NCBI GenBank assembly: GCA_045589375.1
Contig: JAZNOY010000042.1
Span: forward strand, 101-64,100
DNA length: 64,000 bases
Source of the DNA: Acutalibacteraceae bacterium
GTDB lineage: Bacteria > Bacillota > Clostridia > Oscillospirales > Acutalibacteraceae
Direction: 5' to 3'
This document shows positions 26,113 through 63,570 of the stretch, piece by piece (position 1 is the first letter of the stretch; every line of letters begins with the position of its first letter). The notes below the pieces were generated by a model. That model was not told where the DNA came from and did no database searches. It saw nothing but the letters and a program-made list of their open reading frames with translations. Position numbers and translations under genes: made by a program.

Positions 26113-26150
26113 GTTTTTCCTCCGTTATAAACCGAATTTTATTTTTCTGT

Positions 26151-37968: not shown

Positions 37969-37985
37969 TATTTTCGGCTCCTTTC

Positions 37986-39806: not shown

Positions 39807-39824
39807 TTTCTATACCTCCAAAAA

Positions 39825-40196: not shown

Positions 40197-40222
40197 ATAT
40201 TTCTCCCTTTCATTAATATCTA

Positions 40223-41508: not shown

Positions 41509-41830
41509 CTAAAAACTCTTGAAGCTTCAGCGCCGTTTCGTAAGCCGGAAGCTCTGAAGAAAACACATTAACGAGCTTTGCCTCGGCTTCCTTAACGATA
41601 CCCTCATCAAGCTCTACGCCTTCCGCCAATATAACACACGCTGTATCGGCAAGCGAGGCAACCGCTATAACATTAATGTTGGACATAATCGTTATCCACG
41701 CACTGTCTGCCCCCGCTCTGCCCATAACCCAGCTAAGCAAATCGCCTATATAAACACCGGATATTTCACGCTCACCATCGGGCAAGGAAATCGCTTTAAA
41801 GCCAAGACGAGTAAGCTCACTTACCTTCAT
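41501..41830 (-). CDS. DRTGG domain protein
   Basis: 109 aa. It is a paralog of the 43530-43886 product, and its size and pattern fit the DRTGG family. Confidence 0.6.
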   Translation of the reverse strand: MKVSELTRLGFKAISLPDGEREISGVYIGDLLSWVMGRAGADSAWITIMSNINVIAVASLADTACVILAEGVELDEGIVKEAEAKLVNVFSSELPAYETALKLQEFLDE

Positions 41831-43091: not shown

Positions 43092-43111
43092 ACCTTAACC
43101 CTAAATGCAGT

Positions 43112-43537
43112 TTAGCTTAAATTGACACGCATTGTAATGGTGGTTCCGCTACCTACAACGGTCTCTATCTTCATATCATCGGAATAGCGCTTCATATTAG
43201 GAAGTCCCATACCGGCTCCAAAGCCTAAAGACCTGATTGTATCGGTTGCAGTAGAAAAGCCCTCCTGCATAGCCTGTTCTATATTTTTAATGCCGGGACC
43301 ATGGTCGGAAAGAACAATCTCTATGTAATCCTCATAAACGCGCACCTCGGCATCACCGCCGCCCGCATGGATTACCATATTGATTTCACCCTCATACATA
43401 GCTATTGACACTCGCCTTATTATTTCGGGAGATATGCCAAGCTGACGAAGGTTCTTCTTTACCTGAACTGAAGCCTGACCGGCCGAAGTAAAGTTTCCTC
43501 CATCCACATCAAAGTGGAAAATCAATGCTTCAGACAT
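43112..43537 (-). CDS. SpoIIAB/RsbW-like serine kinase (HATPase_c, anti-sigma-factor-type)
   Basis: 141 aa. N-box-like YEGEINMVIHAG and G-boxes SDHGPGI and GFGAGMGLPN. Confidence 0.7.
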   Translation of the reverse strand: MSEALIFHFDVDGGNFTSAGQASVQVKKNLRQLGISPEIIRRVSIAMYEGEINMVIHAGGGDAEVRVYEDYIEIVLSDHGPGIKNIEQAMQEGFSTATDTIRSLGFGAGMGLPNMKRYSDDMKIETVVGSGTTITMRVNLS

Positions 43538-43886
43538 GACGAGTCACATTGCCGGTAAGGCCGTTTGTATATAAAATGCCGCAGGCATCATACATACGCT
43601 TATCGGTGGTCATAAGAACTATACCGTGTTCACGGGCAAGCTCAATCATATCCTCACTCGGAGCCTTTGAACGAACGAAAACGATGCATATCATATCCAT
43701 CATTTCGGCCGTTCTGATTACCTGAGGATTAACAAGTCCCGTAAGCAAAACGGCTTGGTCCTTAACATAGGCCAAAACATCACTCATCATATCGCTTCCG
43801 CAAGCGGAATATACATGGCGGTCGAGCATTTCCTCGTTACAAAGCACCTCGGCACCAAGCAGTTCTTTAATGGTAGTAATTTTCAT
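43530..43886 (-). CDS. DRTGG domain protein
   Basis: 118 aa with a LLTGLVNPQ...IVFVRSK...IVLMTT pattern. Confidence 0.65.
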   Translation of the reverse strand: MKITTIKELLGAEVLCNEEMLDRHVYSACGSDMMSDVLAYVKDQAVLLTGLVNPQVIRTAEMMDMICIVFVRSKAPSEDMIELAREHGIVLMTTDKRMYDACGILYTNGLTGNVTRHV

Positions 43887-43913
43887 AAAGCCATTTCCTT
43901 CTGCTAAAGCAGT

Positions 43914-44414
43914 TTATTTATTCATATATTTATCCAAAATTCCGTCAACATCGTCAACGGTAAGTCTGCCGTAAACCTCATCGTTTACAGTGAGAACGGG
44001 AGCAAGACCGCACGCACCTATGCAACGGCAGGCGGTAAGGGAAAATTTACCGTCAGCAGTGCATTCATCGGCACCGATGCCCAAGCGCTCACTTAGTTTA
44101 TCGAATATAGGACCTGCGCCCTTAACATAGCAAGCAGTTCCAAGGCAAACAGAAATATTATATTTGCCCTTGGGAGAGAGTGAAAACTGAGCATAGAAGG
44201 TTGATACACCATAAACCTGCTCAAGCGACACATCCATACCCTCAGCTATCATTTCCTGCACTTCAAGCGGGAGATAACCATAGATATCCTGTGCCTTCTG
44301 CATTACTACCATAAGGTTGCTCTTATCAGCTTTATGCTCTTCAATGACCTGCATAAGCTGAGCTTCTTGCTCTGCGGTTCCCTTAAACGGAAGTTTGCTT
44401 ATTTTCTTCTTCAT
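43914..44414 (-). CDS. hydC: NuoE-like [2Fe-2S] subunit of the hydrogenase
   Basis: Thioredoxin-like ferredoxin with CLGTACYVKG...CRCIGACGLAP. It is the first gene of the operon. Confidence 0.9.
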   Translation of the reverse strand: MKKKISKLPFKGTAEQEAQLMQVIEEHKADKSNLMVVMQKAQDIYGYLPLEVQEMIAEGMDVSLEQVYGVSTFYAQFSLSPKGKYNISVCLGTACYVKGAGPIFDKLSERLGIGADECTADGKFSLTACRCIGACGLAPVLTVNDEVYGRLTVDDVDGILDKYMNK

Positions 44415-49349: not shown

Positions 49350-49507
49350 CTTCCCCTAACTATTTTAAAAAATTATAACATATATTTTAAAAATATTCAA
49401 TAGCAGTTATTGTAAATAGTGTAAACAAAATTGCATTAAAGACAAATCTTTCCACGACTTGTTATTATATAATGTTAACCGAAAGAAATTCTTTAAGGGG
49501 GGTTATT

Positions 49508-50581
49508 ATGCCATACGATTTAAAAGAAATTTGTTCTCATTTTGATATTACAACCAATATCGGCTCCTATGGAAACGGTCACATTAACGATACATATTTG
49601 TGCGAAACCGACCCCGGCTTCATTTTGCAAAGGATAAACACCAACATTTTCAAAAACCCCGATGAGCTTATGGAAAACATTTTTAATGTTACCGACCACA
49701 TTAAAGCAAAAATCAAGGCAGCCGGCGGTGATATTAAGCGCGAAACCTTAACCGTTATTAAGACCACCGACAATAAAAACTATTATCGCACGGGTGACGG
49801 CGACTGCTTTAGAATGTATAACTTCATTCAAAACTCGGCAAGCTTCGATACCGCCGAAACGAGCGATTTGCTATATGAGGCCGGCAAGGCCTTCGGCAAA
49901 TTTCAGCGAATGCTTGATGATTTTCCCGCCGATATTCTTCACGAAACCATTGCAAACTTTCACAACACACCCGAGCGCGTAAATCAGCTAAAAAGTGCTA
50001 TTAAAAACGATGCTGCGGGCAGGCTTAGCAGTTTAAAAGCCGAAACCGATTTTGCTTTTGATTACAGCCGCTATGCAGATATGATAACCTCTGCGCTAAA
50101 ATCCGGTGAGGTTCCGCTTCGCGTTACCCATAACGATACCAAGCTTAACAATGTTTTGTTTGATGCCGATACCCTTGAGGGCCTTTGCGTAATCGACCTT
50201 GATACCGTTATGCCGGGCTCTATGCTATATGATTTCGGTGATGCGCTTCGTTTTGGGGCCTCATCTGCCTCAGAGGATGAAACCGAGCTTGATAAGGTTT
50301 GGTTTGACCTTGAAAAATTCGATGCTTTTTCGAAAGGCTTTCTCGGAGAAACGGCCAAATTCTTATCGCTTAAGGAGCTTGAGCTGCTTGCTTATTCTCC
50401 GCTGATTTTAACCTATGAATGCGCAATAAGATTTCTTGCCGATTACCTTAACGGCGATACATATTTCAAGATTCACAAGCCGCTGCACAACCTTCACAGA
50501 GCGCGTAATCAATTCAAGCTTGTAAAGGACATCGAAAGCAAGCTTCCAAAAATAAAGGAAATTATAAATAAGTATTTATAA
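49508..50581 (+). CDS. nahK: N-acetylhexosamine 1-kinase (APH-fold, NahK/LnpB-like)
   Basis: ATG 49508 follows AAGGGGGG. It has long blocks shared with my recollection of Bifidobacterium NahK: GNGHINDTY, LRVTHNDTKLNNVLFD, DLDTVMPGSMLYDFGDALRFGAS and RFLADYLNGD. Confidence 0.8.
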   Translation: MPYDLKEICSHFDITTNIGSYGNGHINDTYLCETDPGFILQRINTNIFKNPDELMENIFNVTDHIKAKIKAAGGDIKRETLTVIKTTDNKNYYRTGDGDCFRMYNFIQNSASFDTAETSDLLYEAGKAFGKFQRMLDDFPADILHETIANFHNTPERVNQLKSAIKNDAAGRLSSLKAETDFAFDYSRYADMITSALKSGEVPLRVTHNDTKLNNVLFDADTLEGLCVIDLDTVMPGSMLYDFGDALRFGASSASEDETELDKVWFDLEKFDAFSKGFLGETAKFLSLKELELLAYSPLILTYECAIRFLADYLNGDTYFKIHKPLHNLHRARNQFKLVKDIESKLPKIKEIINKYL

Positions 50582-50632: not shown

Positions 50633-52315
50633 CTAATCTATGTTTTCAAAATGAATTCGCTTATCACAAATGCTTAAAGCGGCTTCGCGGTGGGTTATAA
50701 TAAGCACCGTGCGATTTGTCATAGAGCGTATATTCTTTAAAAGCTGTTCCTCGGTTGGTGCATCGAGCGCACTCGTTGCCTCGTCTAAAAGAAGAATCGG
50801 ACGCTCTGAGAGGATTGCTCTTGCAACCGAGAGGCGTTGCATTTGTCCTTCAGACAAGCCGCTTCCGCGTTCGCCTAAAATGGTATCCAATCCGTTTGGA
50901 AGCTCATCCACAAAGCCATCTGCACAAGCAATTTTAAGCGCTTGATAAAGCTTTTCCTCCTGCTTCATTAAATCGGGGTCGGAAAAGGTTATGGTTTCGC
51001 GAATGGTTCCCGAAATTAATTGGTTACCCTGCGGAACATAAGCAAACAGACCGCGCCAAGAAGCATTAAGGCTATGGCGAGAGCCATCGGTATTTTGCAA
51101 ATAAGCGTTTCCGCTATCCAAAGGATATAAATTAAGCAAAAGCTTAAGAGCGGTGCTTTTGCCGCAACCCGATTCACCCGTAAAGGCAATAAACTCGCCC
51201 TTATGAATATCTAAATTAAGGTTTTTAAGCACCTTTTCATTTTCGTTTTCATAAGCAAAGCAGGCGTTTTCAAGACCTACAGAATAAAACTGCTCGTCAT
51301 AATATTTGTGAATTTCTCCCTGCCCTATGGGGAATGCCGCAACACCCGACTCAAAGTCTTCAATCTCAATTAATCGCTCTGCGCTTGCGAGCATTGAGTA
51401 ATATTGCGAAATATAAGAGGATATCATGGCCATCGGAGTTTCGAGCATATTAATCAAATATAATATTGAGGACATCGTTCCGTAGCTCATAAGGCCGTTT
51501 AAAATTCCAAAGCCGCACAAGCCGACACCGAGAACCTGCGCGCCGTTCATAGCAATGCTCAGGGCGGTGTGGCTTAAATTTACAAAGTGAAAACGGCGCA
51601 TACGGGTTGCAATATAGTTATCCGTATGCTTTTTACCCAACTCCTCAGAGGCCTTTTCCTGTGTAAAGGAGCGAACAACCAACAGGCTATATAAACGTTC
51701 CTGCATAAAGGAACGGGCTACACCGTCTGCCTGCTGGGCTTTCTTATGATGAAGCTTAATTTTTTTGCGGAAAAAGTAAGAAAAAAGAACCATTAATAAG
51801 CTGCAGGGCAATAAAATATAAACGAGCCTCGGAGCAAAATTGAGCAGCGCAATCAAGGCGCCAACCATACGCACTAAAGCACCTGCAAGCTCAGGAAGAA
51901 TGGTGGCAACTGCCCTTGAAATAACCGCGGTATCAGAGATAATGCGGTTCATCCACTCGCCCGTGTGGGTTTGAGTGATTTTTGCATAATCACGATGAAG
52001 CAGCTCGGAGAAGGTATGTGTTCGAAAGGCTCTATCTAACAAGGAGAAGCTTTTTTCGGATATGTATCTGCCTAAAGATTGAATAACCACCGTAAATACT
52101 ACAAGGGCTATAAAAAAGGCAAGATGGCTATAAAACGCATCACTTATGCCGGCGGCCGCTTGGTCAACAACGCTACCGAGCGCATAGGCATATAAAATAC
52201 AGGTATATCCCTGAACTATGCGAACAAGCATTAATAGTGCCGTCCACCATAATGTTTTGCCCGATACATTAAAAATCCATTTTAAAATTAAACGGTCTTT
52301 TTTATCCATCAGCAT
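50633..52315 (-). CDS. ABC exporter, fused 6-TM permease and ATPase (MsbA/half-transporter type)
   Basis: N-terminal TMD. NBD with GESGCGKST, LSEGQMQR and LLLDEATSALD. Its ATG abuts the stop of the upstream gene. Confidence 0.85.
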   Translation of the reverse strand: MLMDKKDRLILKWIFNVSGKTLWWTALLMLVRIVQGYTCILYAYALGSVVDQAAAGISDAFYSHLAFFIALVVFTVVIQSLGRYISEKSFSLLDRAFRTHTFSELLHRDYAKITQTHTGEWMNRIISDTAVISRAVATILPELAGALVRMVGALIALLNFAPRLVYILLPCSLLMVLFSYFFRKKIKLHHKKAQQADGVARSFMQERLYSLLVVRSFTQEKASEELGKKHTDNYIATRMRRFHFVNLSHTALSIAMNGAQVLGVGLCGFGILNGLMSYGTMSSILYLINMLETPMAMISSYISQYYSMLASAERLIEIEDFESGVAAFPIGQGEIHKYYDEQFYSVGLENACFAYENENEKVLKNLNLDIHKGEFIAFTGESGCGKSTALKLLLNLYPLDSGNAYLQNTDGSRHSLNASWRGLFAYVPQGNQLISGTIRETITFSDPDLMKQEEKLYQALKIACADGFVDELPNGLDTILGERGSGLSEGQMQRLSVARAILSERPILLLDEATSALDAPTEEQLLKNIRSMTNRTVLIITHREAALSICDKRIHFENID

Positions 52316-53407
52316 CTACCCTCCGTATTTTTTCAAAATTAAAGGAATATTGCAGCTACCCGTTTCGTTTTTGCATTGAAAATCACGAAACAGCAGCTTT
52401 CGTAAAATCGTTTCCTTCGCAGGCTCTCGCAAAGCCACCTGCTCGGCAGGCTCTCTTTCGCTTTCGATAACCAACGCATTAGCGCGGATTTTTTCTATTA
52501 ACTCCTTGCCCTTATTTGTTCTCGCGATAACCAACGAGGTGCCCATTCCATCAGCCAATTCGGGCTTAAAGTTTTCAACACCCCAATAGTCACCGATAGT
52601 CAGGTCAAAGGGCAGCTCCCAATGGGTATAAGGGCATTGGTAACAGCTCGGTCGAAGTGTAATACATTTCATATAAAGTCTGCTAAAAGGGTCGTTGCCC
52701 ATTGAAACGGCATATTCTTGGTTATCAACGGTATAAGCAACGGTATGCCCATCGTTTTTAATCCTTTTATCCCTAAAGCAGTAATTTTCAAGTTTTTTAT
52801 CGCCTTTAATATGGGAAACATAATCTCTCCACAAGCCGGGCGATTGCACACCACGGCAAATAAGTGCCGCCAAAATTAAATTCGAGGAGGGCTTTCCGAT
52901 AAATCTGCGAACACCGTCGCATTGACAGGGCGTTCCTGTAAAAAGCACCTTTTTGCCCGCCTTTAAAGACTCGCTTATTTGAGAATAAATACCCGTAAGC
53001 TCGCTTTGAACATATTTGGATTTTCTCATTCTTGAAATATCGTTTGAGAGAATATGACGAACATTAAAGTCCTCATCAAAAGCCGCACCGCAAACCAAGC
53101 CGCCCGCCGAAATTATCTCATCGGCAAAAAGCGAAAATGCACCGCCCGAGGAGCTTTTCTTTAAAAGCTCGGTATCATTGCAGCGCACGGCATAGGCGCT
53201 ACCATCGAGCTGTTCGAGGGGATTATTAGCAGGACAAGCCTCTTTGCAAGCACCGCACTGTGTGCATAGCTCGTTATTAATCGAAGGATAAATAAAGCCC
53301 TCGGCATCCTCTATCATAGAAATAGCATTATTAGGGCAAACGGCACAACACGCACCACAGCCAAAGCACTCGGATTTTTTATTTATTAACTGTATCATCG
53401 AGGGCAA
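52316..53407 (-). CDS. coenzyme F420 hydrogenase/dehydrogenase beta-subunit (FrhB)-like Fe-S flavoprotein
   Basis: Two N-terminal ferredoxin motifs (CFGCGACCAVCP, CTQCGACKEACP) followed by an FrhB_FdhB-like body. This type is usually a partner of pyruvyl transferases. Its start overlaps the upstream gene by up to 29 nt. Confidence 0.72.
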   Translation of the reverse strand: MPSMIQLINKKSECFGCGACCAVCPNNAISMIEDAEGFIYPSINNELCTQCGACKEACPANNPLEQLDGSAYAVRCNDTELLKKSSSGGAFSLFADEIISAGGLVCGAAFDEDFNVRHILSNDISRMRKSKYVQSELTGIYSQISESLKAGKKVLFTGTPCQCDGVRRFIGKPSSNLILAALICRGVQSPGLWRDYVSHIKGDKKLENYCFRDKRIKNDGHTVAYTVDNQEYAVSMGNDPFSRLYMKCITLRPSCYQCPYTHWELPFDLTIGDYWGVENFKPELADGMGTSLVIARTNKGKELIEKIRANALVIESEREPAEQVALREPAKETILRKLLFRDFQCKNETGSCNIPLILKKYGG

Positions 53408-54428
53408 TTCTCCTTAGATATGAAATAGATGAAGCCTTGCGCTCGTCCATAAGGCACCAAAGCTCTTCGTAGTTCGGCGAAACCACGGTTTCTAAAGCGG
53501 AAGATAGCCCTAAAAAGCTTAACATTTCATCAAGTCTTCCGTTGCGGGTGCTAAGCTCCCCTGTAAGCCTTTTTATATGGAAGCTTCTACCGAATATCAT
53601 TGAAAAAACCATACCGTGAAAGGAATTGGTGAACACGCTTTGCGCGTTACGAATTAAGCCGAGCCATTCGGTAACACCCGTAGTGTTCCAAGCGCTCATG
53701 CCTACCTGCGGCATAAAAGCGGCAGTAACAATACGAAGCGGCAGGCCTTGGCTTTCGGCCTCTTTACGAGCCCTTGCCAACAGCTCCTCGTCATACTTGA
53801 GAAGGAACAACAGAATATAGGGCTCTAAATCGGTCTTTTGCGTCAGTTTCTCCCAATCCTGCCTATCTAATAACAGTGTTGGGTCTAAGCATACCTCGGC
53901 GTCTTTTCCCGTTAAAGCCTTTACTATCTGACAGCCGCTCGCCTCTCTAACCGATATATTCTTAAATTTTGAAAGCTGGTCTGCTGCCCAAGCCTTTGCC
54001 TTTTCGGGTAGGTCATCTGCACCGAAGCTTGCGGCATAGCTATTGCGCTTTTGGCTCTTGGCAAAAGGCAGAAAATAGCGCGCATCGGCGCCGGGAATTC
54101 TAAAATTCCAAATCTGGTCGCTACCTGCTATAAAGCAGTCATAATCATTATCTATAGGCTCTGCCGGTTGATACGGGCGGGAAATTTTCATATATTTCTG
54201 CCTAAAGTCTTCAAAAAGAGCCTCGCGTTTTTTGCTTTCCGCCTGTATTTTACGAGCAAAAATAGCAGCCGCACCGACAGCAGCCTCTGCCCCGGTGTTT
54301 CCCTTCGGCATTTCGATTTGCACGAATTGACTTTCCTTACCCAGCTTTAAGAGGGTTTGCTGCAGAGCATAAGCCTGCAACACTGCACCATAGCTATCTG
54401 CCTCGTGGAAGGTTAAAATTCCAATCAT
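53379..54428 (-). CDS. polysaccharide pyruvyl transferase family protein
   Basis: N-terminal GILTFHEADSYGAVLQAYALQ is a signature of this family. About 350 aa. Confidence 0.78.
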   Translation of the reverse strand: MIGILTFHEADSYGAVLQAYALQQTLLKLGKESQFVQIEMPKGNTGAEAAVGAAAIFARKIQAESKKREALFEDFRQKYMKISRPYQPAEPIDNDYDCFIAGSDQIWNFRIPGADARYFLPFAKSQKRNSYAASFGADDLPEKAKAWAADQLSKFKNISVREASGCQIVKALTGKDAEVCLDPTLLLDRQDWEKLTQKTDLEPYILLFLLKYDEELLARARKEAESQGLPLRIVTAAFMPQVGMSAWNTTGVTEWLGLIRNAQSVFTNSFHGMVFSMIFGRSFHIKRLTGELSTRNGRLDEMLSFLGLSSALETVVSPNYEELWCLMDERKASSISYLRRIALDDTVNK

Positions 54429-55276
54429 TATTCCATTTCCTTTCTTGCTCGCTGCGCAGCACTCGACAGTAAAAGCCCTCTTTTTTGTCGCTCTAAGGCT
54501 TGTATGAGTGCGGTATAGTGCGCTTTATCACAATCACAATGCTCTAAAATCGCCAGTCTAAGCGCGGTGAAATTTTCAATGCGCTGTAAATTCTCCCTAT
54601 ACGAACGGCTACGACTGGAATGACCGGTATGTCTGCGGCAATAGGTATGTAACTTTTCATCCAAATAGCCACATTCGCTTCTGCTCGCCGAGGGTAATAA
54701 AAGCTGTAGATTTTGTCCCTCGGGAGATTCCGGCATTTTTTTACTTGGATAGCCCTTAAAAAACAACTCGGTTCTTATCATATAACAGCCGGCATAGCAA
54801 TAGGTTTTATCTAAAATTAGCTCTTCAAAGATATTATTTTGACTGCGGTCGGCTTCCAATGCACTTTCGCCTAATATGACATTTTTATCGGCATCCATAA
54901 CAATTCCGTTGCTTCTAACCATTCCCACATCAGTGTGGTTTAAAAGCCAAAGTGCCTTTTTTTCTATGCTATCATAAGAAAGCAGGTCATCGGCATCGCA
55001 CCAAGTGAAAAACTCACCCGTAATAAGCGGAAGCGCGGCATTCATTGCGGCGGCCTGTCCTTTATGTGAGCAAAAAAGCAATTTAACGGAAATTCCCGCC
55101 GCTTCTAAACGCACCTTATAGTCCCTCAAACAAGCCGCCGAGTCATCGGTAGAGCCATCGTCTACCAAAATAACCTCTAACGGTCGCCAGGTTTGTTGCT
55201 CTAAGCAATTTAGGAAGTCCTTTAAATAAGGCATTGAATTGAACACAGGAGCAGCCAAGGTTACAAGTGGTTTCAT
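54428..55276 (-). CDS. glycosyltransferase family 2
   Basis: GT-A N-terminus (LAAPVFNSMPYL...ILVDDGSTDDS) and a DAD motif (CDADDLL). Confidence 0.85.
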   Translation of the reverse strand: MKPLVTLAAPVFNSMPYLKDFLNCLEQQTWRPLEVILVDDGSTDDSAACLRDYKVRLEAAGISVKLLFCSHKGQAAAMNAALPLITGEFFTWCDADDLLSYDSIEKKALWLLNHTDVGMVRSNGIVMDADKNVILGESALEADRSQNNIFEELILDKTYCYAGCYMIRTELFFKGYPSKKMPESPEGQNLQLLLPSASRSECGYLDEKLHTYCRRHTGHSSRSRSYRENLQRIENFTALRLAILEHCDCDKAHYTALIQALERQKRGLLLSSAAQRARKEME

Positions 55277-55938
55277 TCCTTTTTCATTCGCTTTCTGAGC
55301 AATGCGGCATAGTTTGCCATCTCTTGCTTTGGTTGAACTCGACCTGTATTGGTCAAATGAAGTCTTCTTTTTAAAGTAACCGTTTGAATTTGCGCCGTTT
55401 TAATACCCGAATCCCTTAGCTTTAACAGCCAAGCAACCGTTTCGCCGCTTTTCATCGTGGCATCAAAAAGGCCTATCGTATCAAAAATGCGCCGCTTTAT
55501 TAAGCTACAGCCGGGCAGAACACCGGCATAGCTACCGCTCCGAGGGCACAGCTCGGCCTTTTGGGAATCGGTAAGCTCGGGAGAAATAAAATCCTCAGCC
55601 ATAGCAAAAACAGCATCGACCTCTTCTGAAAGGGCACAATACATAGCATCTAATGCGCCGGGGGTTAGCTCATCATCGGCATCGAGCAACAAAACAAGCT
55701 CGCCTTTAGCAACACCGAGTCCCGCATTTCGCGCCGATGCCGCGCCGCCTTGGTGCTTTTTCAAAAGCTCTACGCCTAATTCCTTTGCCACACTCGCGGT
55801 GCCATCGGTAGAGCCATCATCAATCACTATGATTTCCATTTCGCCCTGCCAATTTTGCCCTCTTGCAGAAGCGACCGCCTTTTCGAGATATTTTTCCGCC
55901 TGATGCGCGGGAATTATAACAGATAAACTTGGTAACAT
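55273..55938 (-). CDS. glycosyltransferase family 2
   Basis: LSVIIPAHQAEKYL...IVIDDGSTDGT and LLLDADDEL. Confidence 0.85.
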   Translation of the reverse strand: MLPSLSVIIPAHQAEKYLEKAVASARGQNWQGEMEIIVIDDGSTDGTASVAKELGVELLKKHQGGAASARNAGLGVAKGELVLLLDADDELTPGALDAMYCALSEEVDAVFAMAEDFISPELTDSQKAELCPRSGSYAGVLPGCSLIKRRIFDTIGLFDATMKSGETVAWLLKLRDSGIKTAQIQTVTLKRRLHLTNTGRVQPKQEMANYAALLRKRMKKE

Positions 55939-55953
55939 AAAATTCTTCCTAAC

Positions 55954-56646
55954 CTAATTATTTAAAAAAGACACATAATCAAAATCGTCCATCAATCGTT
56001 TTTGGCTGAATTTCGTTGGATAATCCATAGCATATTTTTTTCTGAAAAAGACCGATTTTCTCAAAGGGACAATCTCCTTGTTAAAAGAAAAAAGGACCTT
56101 TGCAAGCATACGCTTTTTGGGGTGCTTGATACCCTTAAAGCGCTTATATAATGGGTTTAGTTTGTGCAGGAAGGGAAGCTTTTGAATTGTGGGCGAATGA
56201 AAGATAACATAGAGATTATCAAGGTCTACCCTTTGGCATCTTCTAAGCCATTTTTCCTTCCCTTTTTCAAAGGTGCCGTCGTGCATAAAGTGTAACACTA
56301 CCTGCTCTTCTCCCTTTTTCAAAACCCCAACGGGATAGGTTATACCGTCTATAAAAATTTCTTCGGGTGTGCAATTTAAGTAATATTCTAAGTCGTTAAC
56401 AAAGCGGGTAAAATCATTCGGCTTAATTAAAACATTTGCCGTGGGAGATAAATACGGCAAGCCTAAATCGCGGTAAATAGCTCCGCCCACGCAGTTGTTG
56501 CAAATGATAGAAGGCGCGGTATTTTTTAGCCTGCTTTGCATCTGTTTTATAAATTTCAATCTTTTTTGCTGAGTATTTTTTTGGAGCTTAACCTTTATTT
56601 TTTTAAATAACTGAGCCTTCAACCTGCTTTCACTCCCCGCGCTCAT
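55954..56646 (-). CDS. DUF1919 domain protein (polysaccharide-locus associated)
   Basis: IICNNCVGGAIYRDLGLPYLSPT matches the DUF1919 N-terminal signature (SNNCWGG..Y). Confidence 0.68.
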   Translation of the reverse strand: MSAGSESRLKAQLFKKIKVKLQKNTQQKRLKFIKQMQSRLKNTAPSIICNNCVGGAIYRDLGLPYLSPTANVLIKPNDFTRFVNDLEYYLNCTPEEIFIDGITYPVGVLKKGEEQVVLHFMHDGTFEKGKEKWLRRCQRVDLDNLYVIFHSPTIQKLPFLHKLNPLYKRFKGIKHPKKRMLAKVLFSFNKEIVPLRKSVFFRKKYAMDYPTKFSQKRLMDDFDYVSFLNN

Positions 56647-57806
56647 TGTTTATTAATGTTTTTTAGCCTTTCGCTGTGCCTTTGTGCTGACATAATAGCG
56701 GCACGGCGAACGCGTTCTTGGCGCACCACCTCGGGCGGCAGCTCAATTCCTCTGCGCTTCATTTCGGCAATAACCTCGCCGTAATGTTGGCTATTCTTTT
56801 TAGAGAGAATATCTAAAAGGTAAAAATTTTTGTTGTTATAAAATTTTTCGGTGTCAAAAACCTTATTAAATTTATCTAAAGCTCCGAGAGCATACAAGGC
56901 GCCTATCGTGCGAATACATTTACCACAGCTCCCGCAATTTTCCCTTTCGGCATAAATACAAGGGTGTAAATATTTTTGTGCAAGCGGAAAATCAGATAAC
57001 TCCTTTAGCTTTTGCATACGGGAGATATGGCTTCCCGTAGAATAAAACACGGTGCAATCGGTTTCAAAGCATGTAAGTGGGAGCAGCTCGTAATAAGCGC
57101 TGTTCTCCTTAACGAAAGAAAGTCGATTGAATTCATAAGCGCCCGAATTTAAGAAAACTCCGAAAAGCTTTTGAACTGCCAACACGGCGGCAGGCAGTCT
57201 AAAAGCCGCAACTGCTAAATAATTTTCATTCTGCAGCAGGTGTATATTAGAATCTATCGTTATCACCGAAAGCTTTGTTTCAGCAGCGATATTTTTACGG
57301 GCTTTGTTCGCCATAAAGCCTAAAAGCTCTGTGTTGTGGTCGCTTTCCAATGTCCCCACATTTGCAACAAGCAAGTGGGTAAGCTTACGACTGGGCTCGG
57401 TGGCATTAAGGTGTGTCATAAGAGTATGCATACTGTCTACGCCACCTGTCCACCCCGTTCCGACAGCCCTCTCACACGGCAGCGGTGCATCAACAACACT
57501 CGCGTGAATGGCGATGCTCTGATAAATATCCATAGCTGCCGCCATAGTCGGTATGAGATATGTTGTGATTTGATAATAAAGCCTCTTGGTCATCGGGGCT
57601 TCACACTTAATATCCTCGCCGCGCCTCATAGCAGTAGTAAGAAAAGCCACTACAAAGGCATCCGAGCGCTCAGCAGTGAGATATTCGGCATATTCCTTCT
57701 CGGTTGAAAACCATACGGTTTCCTGCCTTCCGTCCAAGTCCACCGTGGCCGATAGAACTGCTCTGTTTTCGGTAATATTAAGTTTTGGCTTTCCAAAACA
57801 AATCAT
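56643..57806 (-). CDS. QueC-like PP-loop ATP pyrophosphatase family protein, paralog A (function unknown)
   Basis: PP-loop variant GWTGGVDS at about aa 118-125. About 175 aa later comes a Zn-type motif, C-x7-C-x2-C-x2-C (HPCIYAERENCGSCGKCIRT). It also has a unique ~110-aa N-terminal domain and a C-terminal extension. Confidence 0.5.
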   Translation of the reverse strand: MICFGKPKLNITENRAVLSATVDLDGRQETVWFSTEKEYAEYLTAERSDAFVVAFLTTAMRRGEDIKCEAPMTKRLYYQITTYLIPTMAAAMDIYQSIAIHASVVDAPLPCERAVGTGWTGGVDSMHTLMTHLNATEPSRKLTHLLVANVGTLESDHNTELLGFMANKARKNIAAETKLSVITIDSNIHLLQNENYLAVAAFRLPAAVLAVQKLFGVFLNSGAYEFNRLSFVKENSAYYELLPLTCFETDCTVFYSTGSHISRMQKLKELSDFPLAQKYLHPCIYAERENCGSCGKCIRTIGALYALGALDKFNKVFDTEKFYNNKNFYLLDILSKKNSQHYGEVIAEMKRRGIELPPEVVRQERVRRAAIMSAQRHSERLKNINKQ

Positions 57807-57824
57807 TCGAATTCTCCTATGCTT

Positions 57825-59024
57825 TTAAGGCTTTTTTGGGGCCTCTTTATTCCTGAGCCTTTGCGCTAATGCGCGATATGTTCCGCGCTCTGCCTGAGTT
57901 AGCGAAACAACTCTTTTTGCAGCCTTAGGTGCTTTCGCCAATCGATAGGCTTCGTCAGGAATGGGAATATTATTGATTTTAAAGATTTGCAAAACATTTT
58001 TGTTAAATGGGTCATCTTTATTGGCAAGCAGATAAGCAAAATGCTCCGGTAATGCCTTTATAAACTCATCAGTGTCAACCACCGAAGCGAAACGGTCGAG
58101 CACTCCATAGGCATAAAGCACCATAAAGGTGCGAACGCATTTTTTGCACAAGCCGCAATTTGCCTTACTAAGACGCCTTCTAAAGCAGGGGTGCAGCCAA
58201 CGGTGCGCCGGCTCCCATTTTGCAAGAGCAAGGAGCTTTTCGTGGCGATAAGCCTCACCGCCCGGACAAAAAACACTAAGGCCCTCGGTTTGTCCGCAAT
58301 GGATTAGCAAAAGGTCAAAAGAGCAATCTCTATTAAGCTCCATAGCAAATTCCGAGAAGGCATAACCCGACGAATGAAGATAAACCGAAAGCAAGCCCTG
58401 CAATGCCATTGCAGATGCCAAATTGCGAAATCCGCAAACAGCTACGAAATCCTCCGGCAAAACCTCAATGATATTTGAGTCCAAAGAAATCAACTGATAG
58501 TCCTGCTCTTTGGCAAAAACAGCAGCATCCTCGCAAGCCTTATGAAAGCTTTGCTTATAAAACTCACCATCAAAGGCACCAACATTGAAGACTGCCAAAT
58601 GGGTTATGGGAAAAGCACTTTCCTTTTGGTGCTTCATAATGGTATAAAGACAATCAACTCCACCCGAAAAGCCCGTGGCGACAGCGCCCTTATTTTGAAC
58701 GGGCTTCGCTACGGTGGGTGCCGTAATTTTTATGGGATTATAAATATCGCCCGCGCCGCATAATGTAGGTATTAAGTAATTCTCAAGCTGGTAATGAAGC
58801 CTTTCGGACATAGGTGTTTCGCAGACAATATCGTGACTACCGCGCATAGCGGCAGGAAGCAACGCCATGACAAAGGCATCACTTCTATCGTAACACAAAC
58901 ATTCTGAATTTGCTTCATCAACGCCGAACCAAAGCGTTGTGCCCTTACCGTTAATGGTTATATCGGCACACACTCGGCTCTGCCCGTTTATGCTTTGGCG
59001 ATATATTTTTTTGATATTCAGCAT
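57825..59024 (-). CDS. QueC-like PP-loop ATP pyrophosphatase family protein, paralog B (function unknown)
   Basis: The start is set at ATG 59024, 4 nt after the GT2 stop, with RBS AGGAA. PP-loop variant GFSGGVDC and the motif C-x9-C-x2-C-x2-C (HPCFRRRLSKANCGLCKKCVRT). It aligns with paralog A throughout. Confidence 0.5.
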   Translation of the reverse strand: MLNIKKIYRQSINGQSRVCADITINGKGTTLWFGVDEANSECLCYDRSDAFVMALLPAAMRGSHDIVCETPMSERLHYQLENYLIPTLCGAGDIYNPIKITAPTVAKPVQNKGAVATGFSGGVDCLYTIMKHQKESAFPITHLAVFNVGAFDGEFYKQSFHKACEDAAVFAKEQDYQLISLDSNIIEVLPEDFVAVCGFRNLASAMALQGLLSVYLHSSGYAFSEFAMELNRDCSFDLLLIHCGQTEGLSVFCPGGEAYRHEKLLALAKWEPAHRWLHPCFRRRLSKANCGLCKKCVRTFMVLYAYGVLDRFASVVDTDEFIKALPEHFAYLLANKDDPFNKNVLQIFKINNIPIPDEAYRLAKAPKAAKRVVSLTQAERGTYRALAQRLRNKEAPKKP

Positions 59025-59028
59025 ACCC

Positions 59029-59715
59029 TTATTCCTTGCTTCCTCTTTTAGTCTGACGAATAGCATCTGCCATAATAGACATCATTCTGTTAATTCCCGA
59101 GGATTTATGGGTTAAGGAGATATTTTTGCTATGTATTCTCCTTTTATAAAGCACCTCGGGTATCAAGTGGTTAAGGCTTATTCCCGAAACATTCAGCCGA
59201 TACATAAATTGCGTATCCTCGCCGTGAGGATAGTCGGTGCGAAATGCACCGCATTTTTCAAACACGCTTCGGCGAATTGCACAGGTAATGATGCATCTTT
59301 CAAGGCTTGCGTTCAGTAGCTCCCTTTGGCGTTCTCCCATAGGGCCGCTCGCTTCATCGTAAAAATTCTCCGCAAGAGTAAAAACAAGCATACAATCAGG
59401 GTTTTCATCCAAATATTTTACTTGCTTTTCAAGCTTACTTGAATCCCACATATCATCGGCATCTAAAAAGACGACTATTTCCCCGCGCGCCGCCTCAATG
59501 GCCGCATTTCGAGTAACCGACACACCGGCGTGCGTCAGCTTAATATACCTCACCTTTTGGTAATTAGATACCACTTGCTCCGTATTATCGGTAGAGCCGT
59601 CATCAACGACGACTATTTCATAATCGGTAAAGCTTTGTGCGAGAACGCTTTCAATGGCTTCACCTATAAATTGAGCGCAATTATATGTGGGGATTAAAAC
59701 CGAAACCCTTGGCAT
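59029..59715 (-). CDS. glycosyltransferase family 2
   Basis: VSVLIPTYNCAQFI...VVVDDGSTDNT and FLDADDMW. Its ATG shares one nt with the PqqD stop (TAATG). Confidence 0.85.
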   Translation of the reverse strand: MPRVSVLIPTYNCAQFIGEAIESVLAQSFTDYEIVVVDDGSTDNTEQVVSNYQKVRYIKLTHAGVSVTRNAAIEAARGEIVVFLDADDMWDSSKLEKQVKYLDENPDCMLVFTLAENFYDEASGPMGERQRELLNASLERCIITCAIRRSVFEKCGAFRTDYPHGEDTQFMYRLNVSGISLNHLIPEVLYKRRIHSKNISLTHKSSGINRMMSIMADAIRQTKRGSKE

Positions 59716-60128
59716 TATTCGCTGAGAATCGGCCAGCCTTGCTCAACATCTACATCGTGAACAGGGTCTGCAAGGATTAAATCCTGCACCTCGTTAAACT
59801 CATCAACCGATAGAGTAAAGCCATCGGTCAAGGCAGCAGCATCAATGCTAACGGGCGCTTCGGCAGTGCCTTCAGAAGCTACTATTACTTCCTTTTCAAG
59901 CAAAGCGTTTATAAAGCTGTTTAAATCCTCCTCGATGTTTGCAGGGCAACCATCAAGAGCCTTTATAGCGGTTAGCACTGCATCTACAGAAGCACCGTTT
60001 AAAAGTGCATCTAAAGCGGCAGAGCCAAGACTACTTGTGCCGTAATACATACCTGTTGTGAAATTAATCACAATAGCCTGTCCCTCTGCCATGTCATAAA
60101 ACATTTTTTCTTCGTTTAACTTATACAT
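59715..60128 (-). CDS. PqqD-family (RRE-like) protein with a 52-aa acidic C-terminal tail
   Basis: The N-terminal ~85 aa fit the PqqD pattern (AEGQAIVINFTTGMYYGTSSLGSAALDALLNGASVDAV). The tail at aa 86-137 has 13 D/E and no K/R. Confidence 0.65.
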   Translation of the reverse strand: MYKLNEEKMFYDMAEGQAIVINFTTGMYYGTSSLGSAALDALLNGASVDAVLTAIKALDGCPANIEEDLNSFINALLEKEVIVASEGTAEAPVSIDAAALTDGFTLSVDEFNEVQDLILADPVHDVDVEQGWPILSE

Positions 60129-60130
60129 TT

Positions 60131-61150
60131 TTAAAACTCCTTTTCTATAAAGCTGCGTAAAAACGCAGGGTTTTTCTTTAAATCGGTGCTCATACGCATT
60201 TCATAAACGGGTAAACCCGAAAGGCGCTGAGCCATCTGCTGAATTAGTGCTGTATCATGGCGCGATTCAATTTGCGTTATGGTCGAATGAATAAGATGAA
60301 TCATAACCTTACTCGGCGGTATGGGTGCTATACTCGGCTCATCGTCACCTGCGATTTTCGGAATTATCAGCGCCTTAATATTCAAAGCGGAACTAAATCT
60401 TTCTGCCGGCACCTGAAACTGCGGCTTGCCTCCCCTAAAGCTGCCATCCTCCTCTAAAAGAGGCTTGCCAAGCTGTGGAAACTCACCATACATATCCTCG
60501 CGCAAAGCCACAATTGTATATAAGGGCATTGCCAAAAGCTCACCCGAGGCGGTAATGAGCGTGTAATCATCCGAAACAAAATCAAGGTCCTCGGCCAAAC
60601 AGGAAACGGCGAAGGTTGATTTACCGCTTCCGCCTCTGCCTGCTATCATTACTCCCTTGCCACCCGTGCCAACGGCAGCGGCGTGGAATAACAGCTTGTT
60701 ATTTGCTTTAGCCCATCTCGCGAAGGCGTTAACCATTACATGCCGCGTTAGCATATAGCCTGAGTTTTGAGGCTTAGGCCTTGCGAAGAAATAGCGCTGT
60801 CTTGCAAAGTCGCAACCCACTAAGGAATCATCATCGGTTCCAATCTTTAAGCTTCCTGTTTCATCGCTACTTTGCCAAACCGATGAAAACTCTGCTTCAC
60901 CCTTTGGAAGATAGTCGTCGCAACGGTCATACCAATATATAAACTTAGCATCAACAGGGCCATCGTCCTCTATCAAAAATCCCGATAAACTCGTTTTGCC
61001 CGCCTCTGCTAATTCCTTAGTTGGAAATCTAAGCTCGATATTTTCACCACAAACCCGAACACGAAAGCCATCAGTAGGCATTTTTCCACTTTTTTCCAAA
61101 TGCCTTTCTACAGCCTGAAAGTATTCGGTTAGTTTTACCTTTGCAGACAC
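60131..61150 (-). CDS. HPr-kinase-related P-loop protein (HprK C-terminal-domain-like serine kinase)
   Basis: LFHAAAVGTGGKGVMIAGRGGSGKSTFAVSCLAEDLDFVSDDYTLI matches the HprK catalytic core pattern (H..G.G.L..G.SG.GKS....L......SDD). GTG start after GGGGGAG. Confidence 0.68.
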   Translation of the reverse strand: MSAKVKLTEYFQAVERHLEKSGKMPTDGFRVRVCGENIELRFPTKELAEAGKTSLSGFLIEDDGPVDAKFIYWYDRCDDYLPKGEAEFSSVWQSSDETGSLKIGTDDDSLVGCDFARQRYFFARPKPQNSGYMLTRHVMVNAFARWAKANNKLLFHAAAVGTGGKGVMIAGRGGSGKSTFAVSCLAEDLDFVSDDYTLITASGELLAMPLYTIVALREDMYGEFPQLGKPLLEEDGSFRGGKPQFQVPAERFSSALNIKALIIPKIAGDDEPSIAPIPPSKVMIHLIHSTITQIESRHDTALIQQMAQRLSGLPVYEMRMSTDLKKNPAFLRSFIEKEF

Positions 61151-61225
61151 CGCATCTCCCCCTTTAAAGCAATAGCTCCTTGCAAATAGTATTTATAGTT
61201 GGTATAATAAACCAAGGTGATTAGT

Positions 61226-62230
61226 ATGAATGAAAATGAAATTGTGTTGTTTTGCGGATTTAATAAAACAACTAAATATTTATGCGAATTATACTCTATG
61301 GACGACACCCACGATAACGCCCTATATGAATGGCTTGATGCCGCCGATTTTGAAGCGCTGCCCTCAGAAGCCACCTCTATGGCCGCAGTAATGGGAGCCG
61401 CTTCTGATTATAGCGGAATTCCCCCTCGCCTAATTCCAAGACTTAAAGGGATAAACAGATATATACACACCTTGAATTCGGGTATGCTATCAGGTCTATG
61501 TGCCTTAGGTGCAAGGCTTAATCAATCCGACATAAGCGTCCTCTTACTTGACGAAACGGCGCTTTATGTTCGTTTCAATAACGCCCCCCAGCGTCAGCTT
61601 TGGCAAATGTTTATAGCCGTATCCGAAAAGGACTATGAAGACACGCTTAACATAGCGCGAGATATCGGCTTTAGCGTGGAAAAATTTCCTCAAACAGCCG
61701 TAGCTCGCCAAGGCGTTACCAGGCAGATTATAATTGCACCTTTAAAGGAAAAGGATTTTCATTTAGTTGATGCCGAGAAAATTGAAATGGGCGGCGCCGA
61801 TTTCCTCTGCCCTACAGTTTCGGAAATTTTAATAGGACTAAGCCGCCGTAATTTTAGGGCGCTAACTAAGCCTAATCCCTCTTTGGTGCGCTGGTTTATG
61901 GATATGAAGCTGCTTTTAGGGCTAATTTCCGATAAGGATTGGGCGTGTGCTTTAAAAATTGCCAAAAGAGAGCATAGCTGCCATCTTATTGGCTTTTTGC
62001 TTACGGTTTATGCCGCTATAACGGGCGATATTATCCCACAAGCAAGCTCCTTTGCGAGCGGGCGCGCTTCGCAAAAAGTATTCGCGCTTCTTAAAAAGCT
62101 TCAAAAAAGCAGCGAAAAAGGTTGGCGCATGCGCCGTTCTTTTCTATTGTTCCGCTTAAGAAGGCCGGACAATATTTTTGCCGCAACCGCGCTTTTTGGT
62201 AAAAACATTTTAAATAAAATAGATTTTTAA
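61226..62230 (+). CDS. hypothetical protein, possibly a degenerate NTP_transf_5-like paralog
   Basis: ATG 61226 follows AAGGTGA. It is preceded by TTGCAA, a 17-nt spacer and TATAAT. Its layout loosely resembles the neighbouring nucleotidyltransferase, but I saw no DxD-type motif. Confidence 0.4.
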   Translation: MNENEIVLFCGFNKTTKYLCELYSMDDTHDNALYEWLDAADFEALPSEATSMAAVMGAASDYSGIPPRLIPRLKGINRYIHTLNSGMLSGLCALGARLNQSDISVLLLDETALYVRFNNAPQRQLWQMFIAVSEKDYEDTLNIARDIGFSVEKFPQTAVARQGVTRQIIIAPLKEKDFHLVDAEKIEMGGADFLCPTVSEILIGLSRRNFRALTKPNPSLVRWFMDMKLLLGLISDKDWACALKIAKREHSCHLIGFLLTVYAAITGDIIPQASSFASGRASQKVFALLKKLQKSSEKGWRMRRSFLLFRLRRPDNIFAATALFGKNILNKIDF

Positions 62231-63402
62231 TCCCCGTTTGTATCTAATCCTACCTGCTGTATATGCTCATCATACTTAGAAAGCTTGCCTTTGTTCATTT
62301 TAAGAACAAGCATACCTCGTTTAATTTTTGCTCGGTTTTTGAACAAGGCATTAAACCAATGCACCACCCAGAACACAGGCAGCAAAAGAGGCTTTTTTGC
62401 TAAAGCCGGATATTTATAAGACAATTCCGAAGGACTCGGAAAAACAGAACGGATAAACCAAAGAAATTTCATTTTAAATATTGATTTATTTCCATCTGCA
62501 TGCTGACGCATTCGGTTATTTATTGCCGATTCATCAAAATCCTCGCACACACCGCCTAAAAAAGCAGAACGGGTTATCAGTTCGGTCGCTTTTGTGGCAC
62601 CTTCCCCGTTAAACCAACTGTTAAGCAGGTCTAATATATTGCGGTAAAAGCTTAAAAGCTTAAGGAAGCCAAGCTTTTCCTCAATATATTTTTCATCCAT
62701 ATCAGGATAATTAACCCGCCAAACATAGAAATCGCAAATATCCTTAGCGCAAATCGAGCCAAAAAGGTAATGCTTGGCGAAATGAACGATTAAATATATA
62801 AAATGCTCCTCGGGGCTCAGTAGATATTGCGAGCTGTTTTCTCTTCTTTTTGCAAGCCGCCAGCTATCGCTATAATATGTAAAATAGCTCTTAAAGCGGG
62901 GCGCTACTAAATGGCGGTGCAGCTCTAAGGTTAGCTCGGGGCATTTCCAAGTATACTCATAGTCACTGTTATCAAGCTCACTAAATCCCAATTTTTGCAA
63001 TATCGGCTGTATTCTTGAATATTGCTCGGGGCGAATGAGAATATCCGCATCCCCCATAACCCGATATTCAGCTTTTGGATAAAGCGGCTTAATAACCGCG
63101 CCCTTAACGGGAAGATACTCAATATTATTTTCATCAAAAACGGCGCAAACCTCTCCGAGCTTTTCCATTTGCCCACGGCTTTTTTTAAGGTCACCACAGA
63201 AGCTTGCCGTCATCTGCACAAGAGCGGGATGTGTTCTCGAAACGCCGCAAAGCAGGGCGCCTTGAATTCCCAAGCCCAGCAGGTGGTGATTATATAATAT
63301 ATCAAACGCCTGCCCTAAATCAAAGGATTCGGGGAGGGAAAGCTTTTCACCCTTTAATGCGCTTCGTAAAAGTGTGATAACGCCTAAATGCAATGCTTCC
63401 AT
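62227..63402 (-). CDS. uncharacterised nucleotidyltransferase family protein (NTP_transf_5-like)
   Basis: The pattern LPVKGAVIKPLYPKAEYRVMGDADILI ... LELHRHL is typical of this family, which is found in lasso-peptide and HPr-rel-A contexts. Confidence 0.65.
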   Translation of the reverse strand: MEALHLGVITLLRSALKGEKLSLPESFDLGQAFDILYNHHLLGLGIQGALLCGVSRTHPALVQMTASFCGDLKKSRGQMEKLGEVCAVFDENNIEYLPVKGAVIKPLYPKAEYRVMGDADILIRPEQYSRIQPILQKLGFSELDNSDYEYTWKCPELTLELHRHLVAPRFKSYFTYYSDSWRLAKRRENSSQYLLSPEEHFIYLIVHFAKHYLFGSICAKDICDFYVWRVNYPDMDEKYIEEKLGFLKLLSFYRNILDLLNSWFNGEGATKATELITRSAFLGGVCEDFDESAINNRMRQHADGNKSIFKMKFLWFIRSVFPSPSELSYKYPALAKKPLLLPVFWVVHWFNALFKNRAKIKRGMLVLKMNKGKLSKYDEHIQQVGLDTNGD

Positions 63403-63531
63403 TTATGCCCTTGCCTTTCTAATTTCAATCAATACAACTATAACTTATATATTATACTATATTGATTTTTTAAAAGCAATAAATTCCGAGCAATTTTTTA
63501 TGGCAACATCATTAAATAATTACCAAAACGC

Positions 63532-63570
63532 AAAACGGTGCAACCGAAAAATCGGCTGCACCGTTTTTTT
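63532..63570. terminator. bidirectional intrinsic terminator
   Basis: Stem aaacggtgca.ccga/tcgg.tgcaccgttt with a T7 run. Confidence 0.75.

Follow-up and report, generated by a model that had tools for sequence, protein, structure and literature searches.

A compact kinase, RRE and nucleotidyltransferase cassette in which the RRE protein carries a near-invariant C-terminal tail

We studied a 64,000-nucleotide stretch of DNA from an Acutalibacteraceae bacterium (contig JAZNOY010000042.1 of assembly GCA_045589375.1), hereafter the window, in which a sequence-only reading had singled out a kinase, a PqqD-type protein and a nucleotidyltransferase encoded close together without a cyclase, a protease or a visible precursor peptide. 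The kinase-like gene (61150..60131, minus strand; 339 aa) begins with GTG behind a GGGGGAG ribosome-binding site and ends exactly 2 nt, read from the sequence, before a 137-aa gene (60128..59715, minus strand) whose product joins a PqqD-like RRE, the recognition element for peptides that are made by ribosomes and modified after translation (RiPPs), to a C-terminal tail. At 59715 the stop codon of this RRE gene overlaps, as TAATG, the start of a gene for a small soluble family 2 glycosyltransferase (GT2; 59029..59715, minus strand; 131.8 bits against PF00535), and the two are translationally coupled. The nucleotidyltransferase is encoded at 62227..63402 (minus strand; 391 aa; NTP_transf_5, PF14907). 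Both junctions and the position of this gene were as the sequence-only reading had given them. Between it and the kinase, in divergent orientation, stands a gene that the reading had left undescribed (61217..62230, plus strand; 337 aa); its product, which we call X337, is a degenerate NTP_transf_5 paralog.

The kinase gene is the first in a tightly packed minus-strand operon of 11 genes, which continues with the RRE protein, the GT2, a PP-loop-like protein of 413 aa and its 387-aa paralog, a DUF1919 protein, two more GT2s, a pyruvyl transferase, an FrhB-like protein and an ATP-binding cassette (ABC) exporter; no strong terminator was seen inside it. All reading frames of the cassette are intact, and catalytic residues are retained in the kinase and the NTP_transf_5 protein. 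The trio proposed earlier is real as three genes, but the unit to which they belong is larger, also containing GT2s, a second NTP_transf_5-like protein and, usually, an exporter.

Residues 1–85 of the RRE protein (59874..60128, minus strand) were modelled by AlphaFold2 (AF2) as a winged helix with a three-stranded sheet and three helices, at a predicted local distance difference test (pLDDT) score of 86–96. Its best Foldseek matches, at a probability of 1.00 and a target-normalised TM-score of 0.82–0.85, were TbiB1 with its leader (5v1v, 5v1u) and 6jx3, the top structural matches being lasso-peptide B1 proteins solved together with leader peptides. Taken singly, the window protein falls 1.4 bits short of the PqqD model PF05402 (22.0 bits, gathering threshold 23.4), a model carried by about half of its close homologs and by all 120 listed Acidobacteria-type homologs; the family profile matched BsfB1 at 53 bits. 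Detection of an RRE, on which the sequence-only reading depended, succeeds at the level of fold and family and is sub-threshold for the single sequence. As modelled, the N-terminal domain is a lasso-B1-type RRE (PqqD/lasso B1-type winged helix); NCBI names the homologs merely ‘PqqD family protein’.

Beyond this fold the protein divides into three parts, all encoded on the minus strand: a hypervariable linker (residues 86–102, 59823..59873; mean entropy 2.6–3.2 bits), a moderately conserved, leader-like docking segment (residues 103–120, 59769..59822; mean entropy 1.3 bits) and a near-invariant tail end (residues 121–133, 59730..59768) reading D-P-V-H-D-V-D-V-E-Q-G-W-P. With 0.36–0.66 bits, the tail end has the lowest entropy in the RRE protein in cross-phylum alignments, the RRE fold itself (residues 1–85) averaging 1.5–1.9 bits. 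Its consensus is D-P-[VI]-H-[DE]-V-[DE]-x(1,2)-x-G-W-P, with P122, H124, G131 and W132 invariant in both alignments; D121 and P133 each vary in only one of the two, where they still reach at least 90% conservation. The motif occurs once per carrying locus and always in the RRE protein, which is the best or near-best conserved protein of the cassette (for example, 75% identity where the kinase has 48%).

The docking segment comes in two forms that align with one another, G-F-x-L-[ST]-V-D-E-F-x-E-V-Q-D-L-I-L-A in Bacillota and F-x-x-P-x-L-x-x-Y-T-D-M-Q-E-L-L-L-L in the Acidobacteria type. The F-x-x-P-x-L of the latter is spaced like the Y-x-x-P-x-L motif of lasso leaders, which lies at positions −17 to −12 (PMC10368454). 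When the lasso ruler is laid from the leucine of the motif, ‘core position 1’ is the residue before D-P; in the Bacillota type this is Ala, giving A1...D8, a resemblance only. AF2 assigned a pLDDT of ~92 to residues 101–110 and ~60 to residues 111–120, with a strand at 108–111 and a less confident helix at 114–120 in the DSSP assignment. Residues 121–133 fell below 50, and the last 17 residues are predicted to be disordered.

Free-standing copies of the tail were sought by searching 1.84 billion representatives with a 40-aa tail query, which gave 45 matches. Of the 15 short matches inspected, most either retain the end of the last RRE helix or have their start at a contig edge or a frameshift, and were taken as truncated gene calls for that reason. 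In two short predicted proteins from the database (P0343 and P0353), which may be frameshift artefacts or real variants, the tail motif comes straight after a hydrophobic, membrane-like N-terminus and no RRE is present. Some loci carry a pair of RRE–tail genes, as in L053 (6193–6606 and 8001–8423), where the second copy has E-W-P for G-W-P, and L109 (7971–8420 and 10504–10966), where the second copy is split by a frameshift.

The kinase had been called HprK-related in the sequence-only reading. For the window protein alone that call is sub-threshold on every model: 21.1 bits against Hpr_kinase_C (PF07475; cut-off 33.3), 25 against the HPr kinase/phosphorylase model TIGR00679 (cut-off 240), 43 against HprK_rel_B and 35.4 against HprK-related A (cut-off 200 for each) and 24.8 against ScmC (cut-off 125). 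Distant homologs reach no more than 62.8 bits on the HprK-related curated models, and the family carries a precomputed PF27840 ScmC annotation. By their own cut-offs, the sequence places this kinase outside the curated HprK, HprK-related A/B and ScmC families. Support for the call came from family profiles and the predicted fold. The family profile matched HprK/P (1ko7) at 24.3 bits over 46 positions and the lasso kinase BsfK at 39.8 bits over 175 positions. The AF2 model (pLDDT 92.3) found phosphoenolpyruvate carboxykinase (PEPCK) as its best Foldseek matches (E 8e-11), the whole-protein fold being nearer to PEPCK; a PDB search with the single sequence gave no match. As modelled, the kinase-like protein is a PEPCK/HprK-fold P-loop kinase.

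Its catalytic set is complete. The P-loop G-x-S-G-x-G-K-S, the upstream His and the D-D metal site of HPr kinase/phosphorylase are all present, and H156, G171, G174, G176, K177, S178, D194 and D195 are all kept; H156, G174, G176, K177, D194 and D195 are invariant in 60 homologs, with G171 and S178 at least 90% conserved. These residues match H148, G163, G166, G168, K169, S170, D186 and D187 of BsfK with identical spacing (15, 3, 2, 1, 1, 16, 1), and the H-G-G-G-K-S-D-D residues of BsfK were found by mutagenesis to be needed (PMC10368454).

The nucleotidyltransferase call of the sequence-only reading was solid, at 119.7 bits against PF14907 (cut-off 31.2) with the G-D-x-D motif intact as G117-D118-A-D120. 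X337 had no Pfam match, and BLASTP found nothing between it and the NTP_transf_5 protein; profile–profile comparison with hhalign related the two at 97.1% probability (E 4.9e-11, 230 columns). In X337 the catalytic Asp pair is replaced by Q130 and F132. Orthologs of the NTP_transf_5 gene adjoin the cassette in related loci, where X337 too is kept beside the kinase. Related loci tend towards one intact and one degenerate copy, the 301–303 aa proteins of L039 and L040 being examples. This pattern suggests, at the sequence level, that the NTP_transf_5 protein and X337 form a catalytic/non-catalytic pair.

Re-scanning both intergenic gaps (61151–61216 and 63403–63568) yielded no credible short open reading frame (ORF), bearing out the earlier statement that no precursor-like ORF lies there. 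Nor was a conserved small ORF found within 8–10 kb on either side of the cassette in 84 diverse loci: an all-against-all search of the small ORFs outside conserved genes returned nothing common to more than three closely related loci. Neither Asn_synthase nor transglutaminase was matched by Pfam among the genes scanned in the window between 17.5 and 63.4 kb, and no BsfB2-like protein, or protein of at least 450 aa with SGGxDS, was present in 117 loci. A lasso cyclase or protease is accordingly missing from the annotated rest of the window and from every syntenic locus, in keeping with the sequence-only reading.

The cassette is widespread. Database searches returned 101 clusters for the kinase and 455 for the RRE protein, and an Acidobacteriota RRE homolog as query added 838 clusters, nearly all of 145–160 aa, PF05402-positive and matching most of the query, including the tail. 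Scanning one genome per species, we found the RRE-plus-tail gene in at least 499 species genomes and more than 15 phyla, among them Bacillota, Bacteroidota, Elusimicrobiota, Desulfobacterota, Patescibacteria, Actinomycetota, Chloroflexota, Pseudomonadota, Verrucomicrobiota, Planctomycetota, Cyanobacteria, Gemmatimonadota and Nitrospirota.

Gene order was followed with the window proteins by tblastn in 35 loci found through the kinase, where the order NTP_transf_5, X337, kinase, RRE protein, GT2 ... ABC exporter is conserved and the middle of the operon varies. A second set of 49 new loci, each of at least 14 kb and found through the RRE protein alone, contained a kinase in 45, an NTP_transf_5-like protein in 40, a GT2 in 47, all three in 37 and an ABC exporter in 24. 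The RRE and kinase genes were direct neighbours, in either order, in 44 of 67 loci. A minimal cassette, GT2–GT2–RRE–kinase–GT2–NTP_transf_5, occurs in Acidobacteriota flanked by unrelated genes, and Thermodesulfobacteriota have a version with RRE–kinase–GT4–GT2–ABC–NTP_transf_5. Environmental relatives encode the kinase fused to a C-terminal GT2 domain (578–589 aa; L039, 8001–9770, and L040, 8001–9737), with Wzm/Wzt-type ABC-2 genes adjoining.

The closest experimental precedents, which were absent from the sequence-only reading, are BsfK with BsfB1 and PsmK with PsmN. BsfB1 strongly boosts phosphorylation of the precursor by BsfK (PMC10368454). In pseudomycoidin biosynthesis, PsmK phosphorylates a Ser, and PsmN, an uncharacterised DxD nucleotidyltransferase, is needed for that phosphate to receive one or two hexoses, its D134A/D136A mutant being inactive (PMC6993621). 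HPr kinase, PqqD, nucleotidyltransferase and GT2 genes have also been noted around predicted clusters in a survey of rumen lasso peptides (PMC7533575). With the lasso tailoring module (BsfB1/BsfK/BsfN, PsmK/PsmN, PadeK) the cassette shares a discrete B1-type RRE, the catalytic motif and spacing of the kinase, a DxD partner of nucleotidyltransferase fold and a fused-type ABC exporter. Unlike that module, it lacks a precursor gene, a B2 protease and a C cyclase; its RRE carries a conserved C-terminal peptide in cis; it adds several GT2s and a degenerate nucleotidyltransferase paralog; and its kinase reaches only ~40 bits against BsfK. Because the defining precursor, B2 protease and C cyclase are missing, we do not regard the cassette as a lasso cluster.

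Other known systems resemble it in part. The HprK-related A/B systems and SynChlorMet (TIGR04352, TIGR04355, ScmC/ScmD) likewise combine an HprK-superfamily P-loop kinase with a neighbouring PqqD-family protein, and the HprK-related kinase A system of TIGRFAMs is understood to pair a PqqD-type protein with a nucleotidyltransferase. The cassette matches all three kinase models and ScmD weakly (35–63 bits against cut-offs of 200, and 25–35 against 125) and, in contrast to SynChlorMet, has no radical S-adenosylmethionine (SAM)/SPASM partners in the window operon or in minimal cassettes. Mycofactocin is made from a precursor, MftA, whose C-terminus is invariant across taxa, with an RRE protein, MftB, and a GT2, MftF, and undergoes GT2-type oligoglycosylation; the likeness lies in the RRE, the taxon-invariant peptide C-terminus and the GT2s. 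The cassette differs in lacking the radical SAM enzyme, peptidase and dehydrogenase, in having its peptide fused to the RRE and in having a kinase and nucleotidyltransferase in place of radical chemistry, and the window GT2 scored below the cut-offs of MftF-type models (62–69 bits).

Pathways of the LicA/LicC/LicD type use a kinase, a nucleotidyltransferase and then phosphotransfer to decorate glycans. By description, the same enzyme logic stands beside glycosyltransferases and an exporter here, whereas those pathways have no RRE. The defining genes of a classical polysaccharide locus (Wzx/Wzy- or ABC-dependent) are missing from the window operon, although Wzm/Wzt occur in some distant relatives: none of the 11 operon genes encodes a priming phosphoglycosyltransferase, a flippase/polymerase or Wzm/Wzt, and its carbohydrate and export genes are confined to the GT2s, the pyruvyl transferase and the fused ABC exporter. 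In the open-access literature we found neither an account of an RRE joined to a conserved peptide nor one of the present cassette.

The sequence-only reading had offered three places for the substrate: encoded elsewhere, part of an encoded protein such as the tail of the PqqD-like protein, or a non-peptide ligand of the PqqD fold. Nothing positive speaks for the third. The second fits best, given the conserved tail, the predicted packing with an exposed end and the lack of a small ORF, and we tentatively favour it, rating it a little short of an even chance: the missing peptide would be the RRE protein's own C-terminal tail, with the lasso-type kinase, the nucleotidyltransferase and then the GT2s acting on its exposed end. 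By analogy, the cassette may derive from the B1-dependent tailoring module of lasso-peptide clusters (RRE, kinase and nucleotidyltransferase) and have become self-contained, a proposal we make with similar reserve, because BsfB1/BsfK and PsmK/PsmN provide precedents and the cassette keeps exactly these three functions.

Under this proposal, a variable linker would tie the RRE to a peptide of its own, of which residues ~103–120 would fold back on the RRE in the manner of a leader, while the 13-residue invariant end would stay flexible, in the position of a core peptide, for presentation to the kinase. The RRE would recruit the adjacent kinase, leading to phosphorylation of the tail, and the active NTP_transf_5 protein, probably with its inactive paralog, would convert the phosphate into a phosphate-linked sugar or activated phosphodiester. 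Small GT2s would then lengthen the glycan, the pyruvyl transferase, DUF1919 and PP-loop proteins might decorate it in the source organism, and the ABC exporter would carry the product out. From these parts we infer both the order of the chemistry and that the acceptor is the end of the tail and not some other molecule.

A more specific form of the proposal, which we consider rather unlikely, is a protein-primed pathway in which the phosphorylated tail becomes phosphate-linked to an oligosaccharide built by the GT2s and is possibly released or cross-linked by cleavage at its invariant Asp-Pro, aided by the invariant His, the product being a conserved glycopeptide metabolite or cofactor in more than 15 phyla. 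VWD domains have a GDPH motif that cleaves itself at Asp-Pro (PMC10880436), and the resemblance of that motif to D-P-[VI]-H in the tail is a lead only. Such a glycopeptide would parallel pyrroloquinoline quinone (PQQ) and mycofactocin, with kinase/nucleotidyltransferase in place of radical SAM chemistry.

Several observations weigh against the tail as substrate. The weakest point is that no Ser, Thr or Tyr is conserved across both tail subfamilies, which leaves the kinase with no evident target in the tail; Thr/Ser residues are subfamily-specific, at 100% at −14 in close Bacillota relatives and, in the Acidobacteria type, at 92–95% at both −9 and +8. The likeness to a leader holds at motif level only, as the RRE–tail family profile gave no significant match to the BsfA leader (E 0.3), and the placement of residues ~103–120 in the leader groove of the RRE is read from pLDDT and DSSP alone. 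PsmN and the NTP_transf_5 protein of the window are likened by description, as DxD nucleotidyltransferases. Core peptides are usually variable, whereas this tail is near-invariant, which fits a docking motif too. The cassette has no protease that could free a peptide, and exporters of this type are unlikely to carry a protein of 15 kDa. Some relatives (L007, L039 and L040), moreover, have the cassette amid envelope-glycopolymer genes (teichoic-acid-type glycerophosphotransferase, IspD, PIG-L, PMT_2 and Wzm/Wzt-type ABC-2 transporters).

In a rival reading the RRE protein would be an adaptor only, its built-in pseudo-leader keeping the RRE permanently ‘leader-loaded’ while the invariant end docks into or activates the kinase, NTP_transf_5 protein and GT2s. 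No ribosomal peptide would then be the acceptor; a lipid carrier, a sugar or a glycan under construction would take that place, and the ABC protein would export an envelope glycan or glycolipid that contains phosphate. We think this unlikely on balance but give it real weight: the tail has no universal hydroxyl acceptor, docking peptides are typically short, disordered motifs that hardly vary, as this one is, the embedding of three cassettes in glycopolymer-type genes points the same way, and so do the kinase–GT2 fusions of some relatives and the pyruvyl transferase and further GT2s downstream in the window. It is countered by the minimal cassettes, which have no gene for a lipid carrier or priming phosphoglycosyltransferase, and by the two studied relatives of the kinase and nucleotidyltransferase, both of which act on peptides; we know of no natural precedent for an RRE serving solely as a scaffold.

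RREs normally bind free precursors, only 64 kb of the genome are in view and short precursor genes are easily missed, so a conventional RiPP pathway could have its precursor gene outside the cassette, with the RRE binding a free leader and the tail having another role. Against this, the first option of the sequence-only reading, speaks the self-contained state of the cassette in many phyla, and we hold it to be improbable: in several phyla the cassette stands compactly among unrelated genes, the small-ORF comparison of the flanks came back empty, the model predicts that the tail packs against the RRE, and the tail-only search gave no convincing free-standing copies. That the nearest characterised relatives of the RRE, kinase and nucleotidyltransferase are all in lasso clusters, and that the tail can be laid along a leader/core ruler with Ala1 and Asp8, might also suggest a degraded lasso cluster that has lost its cyclase and protease and whose leftovers are decaying or independent. 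Intact frames and preserved catalytic residues make this hardly credible, and decay is incompatible with a gene set conserved under strong constraint in at least 499 species of more than 15 phyla. Whatever likelihood remains belongs to something else entirely.

Pathways to peptide natural products are discovered and interpreted by way of their RREs, and every well-studied RRE known to us binds a separate precursor. If the tail is indeed the substrate, the fusion of an RRE with a peptide that is both leader-like and core-like would count as a novel architecture. The fused tail is more constrained than the fold that bears it, and its carriers number hundreds of species, ranging from gut Clostridia to Cyanobacteria and Patescibacteria. 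The arrangement would explain ‘orphan’ PqqD/HprK hits that genome-mining tools probably list as incomplete lasso clusters, and the cassette would offer a tractable system for the chemistry of NTP_transf_5 (PsmN-type) enzymes. Cultured carriers (Papillibacter cinnamivorans DSM 12816, Cohnella cellulosilytica, Rhodohalobacter sulfatireducens and Oscillatoria sp. PCC 10802) make it directly testable.

Control signals around the cassette were also inspected. The sequence-only reading had given the NTP_transf_5 gene its own promoter, TTGCTT-17-TATAAT. The string is present upstream of that gene (63451..63479, minus strand; −35 at 63479..63474, −10 at 63456..63451), but our promoter scan did not call it because its −35 element fits the consensus at only three of six positions, and the region holds no more promoter-like sites than chance would give (6 observed, 6.2 expected). 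A second promoter-like site, TTGCAA-17-TATAAT with a TG extension (61180..61208, plus strand), lies upstream of X337 and matches the consensus at 10 of 12 positions. A strong intrinsic-terminator-like hairpin with a 16-bp stem and a T run (63567..63532, minus strand) ends the upstream transporter gene and isolates the NTP_transf_5 gene from that neighbour.

Beyond the first GT2, the operon continues with the two PP-loop-like paralogs (413 and 387 aa; 56643..59066, minus strand), which have an SGGxDS-type motif and a C-terminal Cys4 and conserve G135, G136, D138, C294, C304, C307 and C310. Neither has a Pfam or NCBIfam match; similarity to PDB or Pfam entries was only marginal, and a PDB search with the single 413-aa sequence gave no match. 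Related Bacillota loci hold one to four copies, often directly after the RRE gene. Considered as hidden cyclases, the paralogs were set aside, having no specific similarity to Asn synthetase and being missing from L001 and the minimal cassettes. DUF1919, two GT2s, a polysaccharide pyruvyl transferase and an FrhB-like Fe-S protein follow (52316..56646, minus strand; assigned by Pfam and syntenic in close relatives), and the last gene encodes the 560-aa ABC exporter with fused transmembrane and ATPase domains (ABC_membrane and ABC_tran; 50633..52315, minus strand). The closest relative, L001, lacks the PP-loop-like paralogs and DUF1919, and the minimal cassettes lack all accessory genes; the PP-loop-like paralogs, DUF1919, the pyruvyl transferase and the FrhB-like gene are accessory and lie outside the core. 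An APH-family phosphotransferase gene (49472–50581, plus strand) converges on the end of the operon and has no counterpart in any related locus.

Elsewhere in the window, the genes scanned are housekeeping genes, including a hydrogenase cluster, sugar ABC uptake, GH77, GH2, AsnA and AsnRS. The hydrogenase cluster (36214–44414, minus strand) comprises genes for two [FeFe]-hydrogenase large-subunit-like proteins, a Nuo51-like flavoprotein and 2Fe-2S thioredoxin-like ferredoxins; genes for two HATPase_c proteins and a PHP-domain protein are interspersed among these. At 23167–27191 (minus strand), a 981-aa fusion of an ABC ATPase with an FtsX-type permease is followed by a 346-aa protein without a Pfam match. 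The sole Rfam matches in the window at the gathering threshold are three tRNA genes, at 20237–20310 (plus strand), 31365–31446 (minus strand) and 31472–31544 (minus strand).

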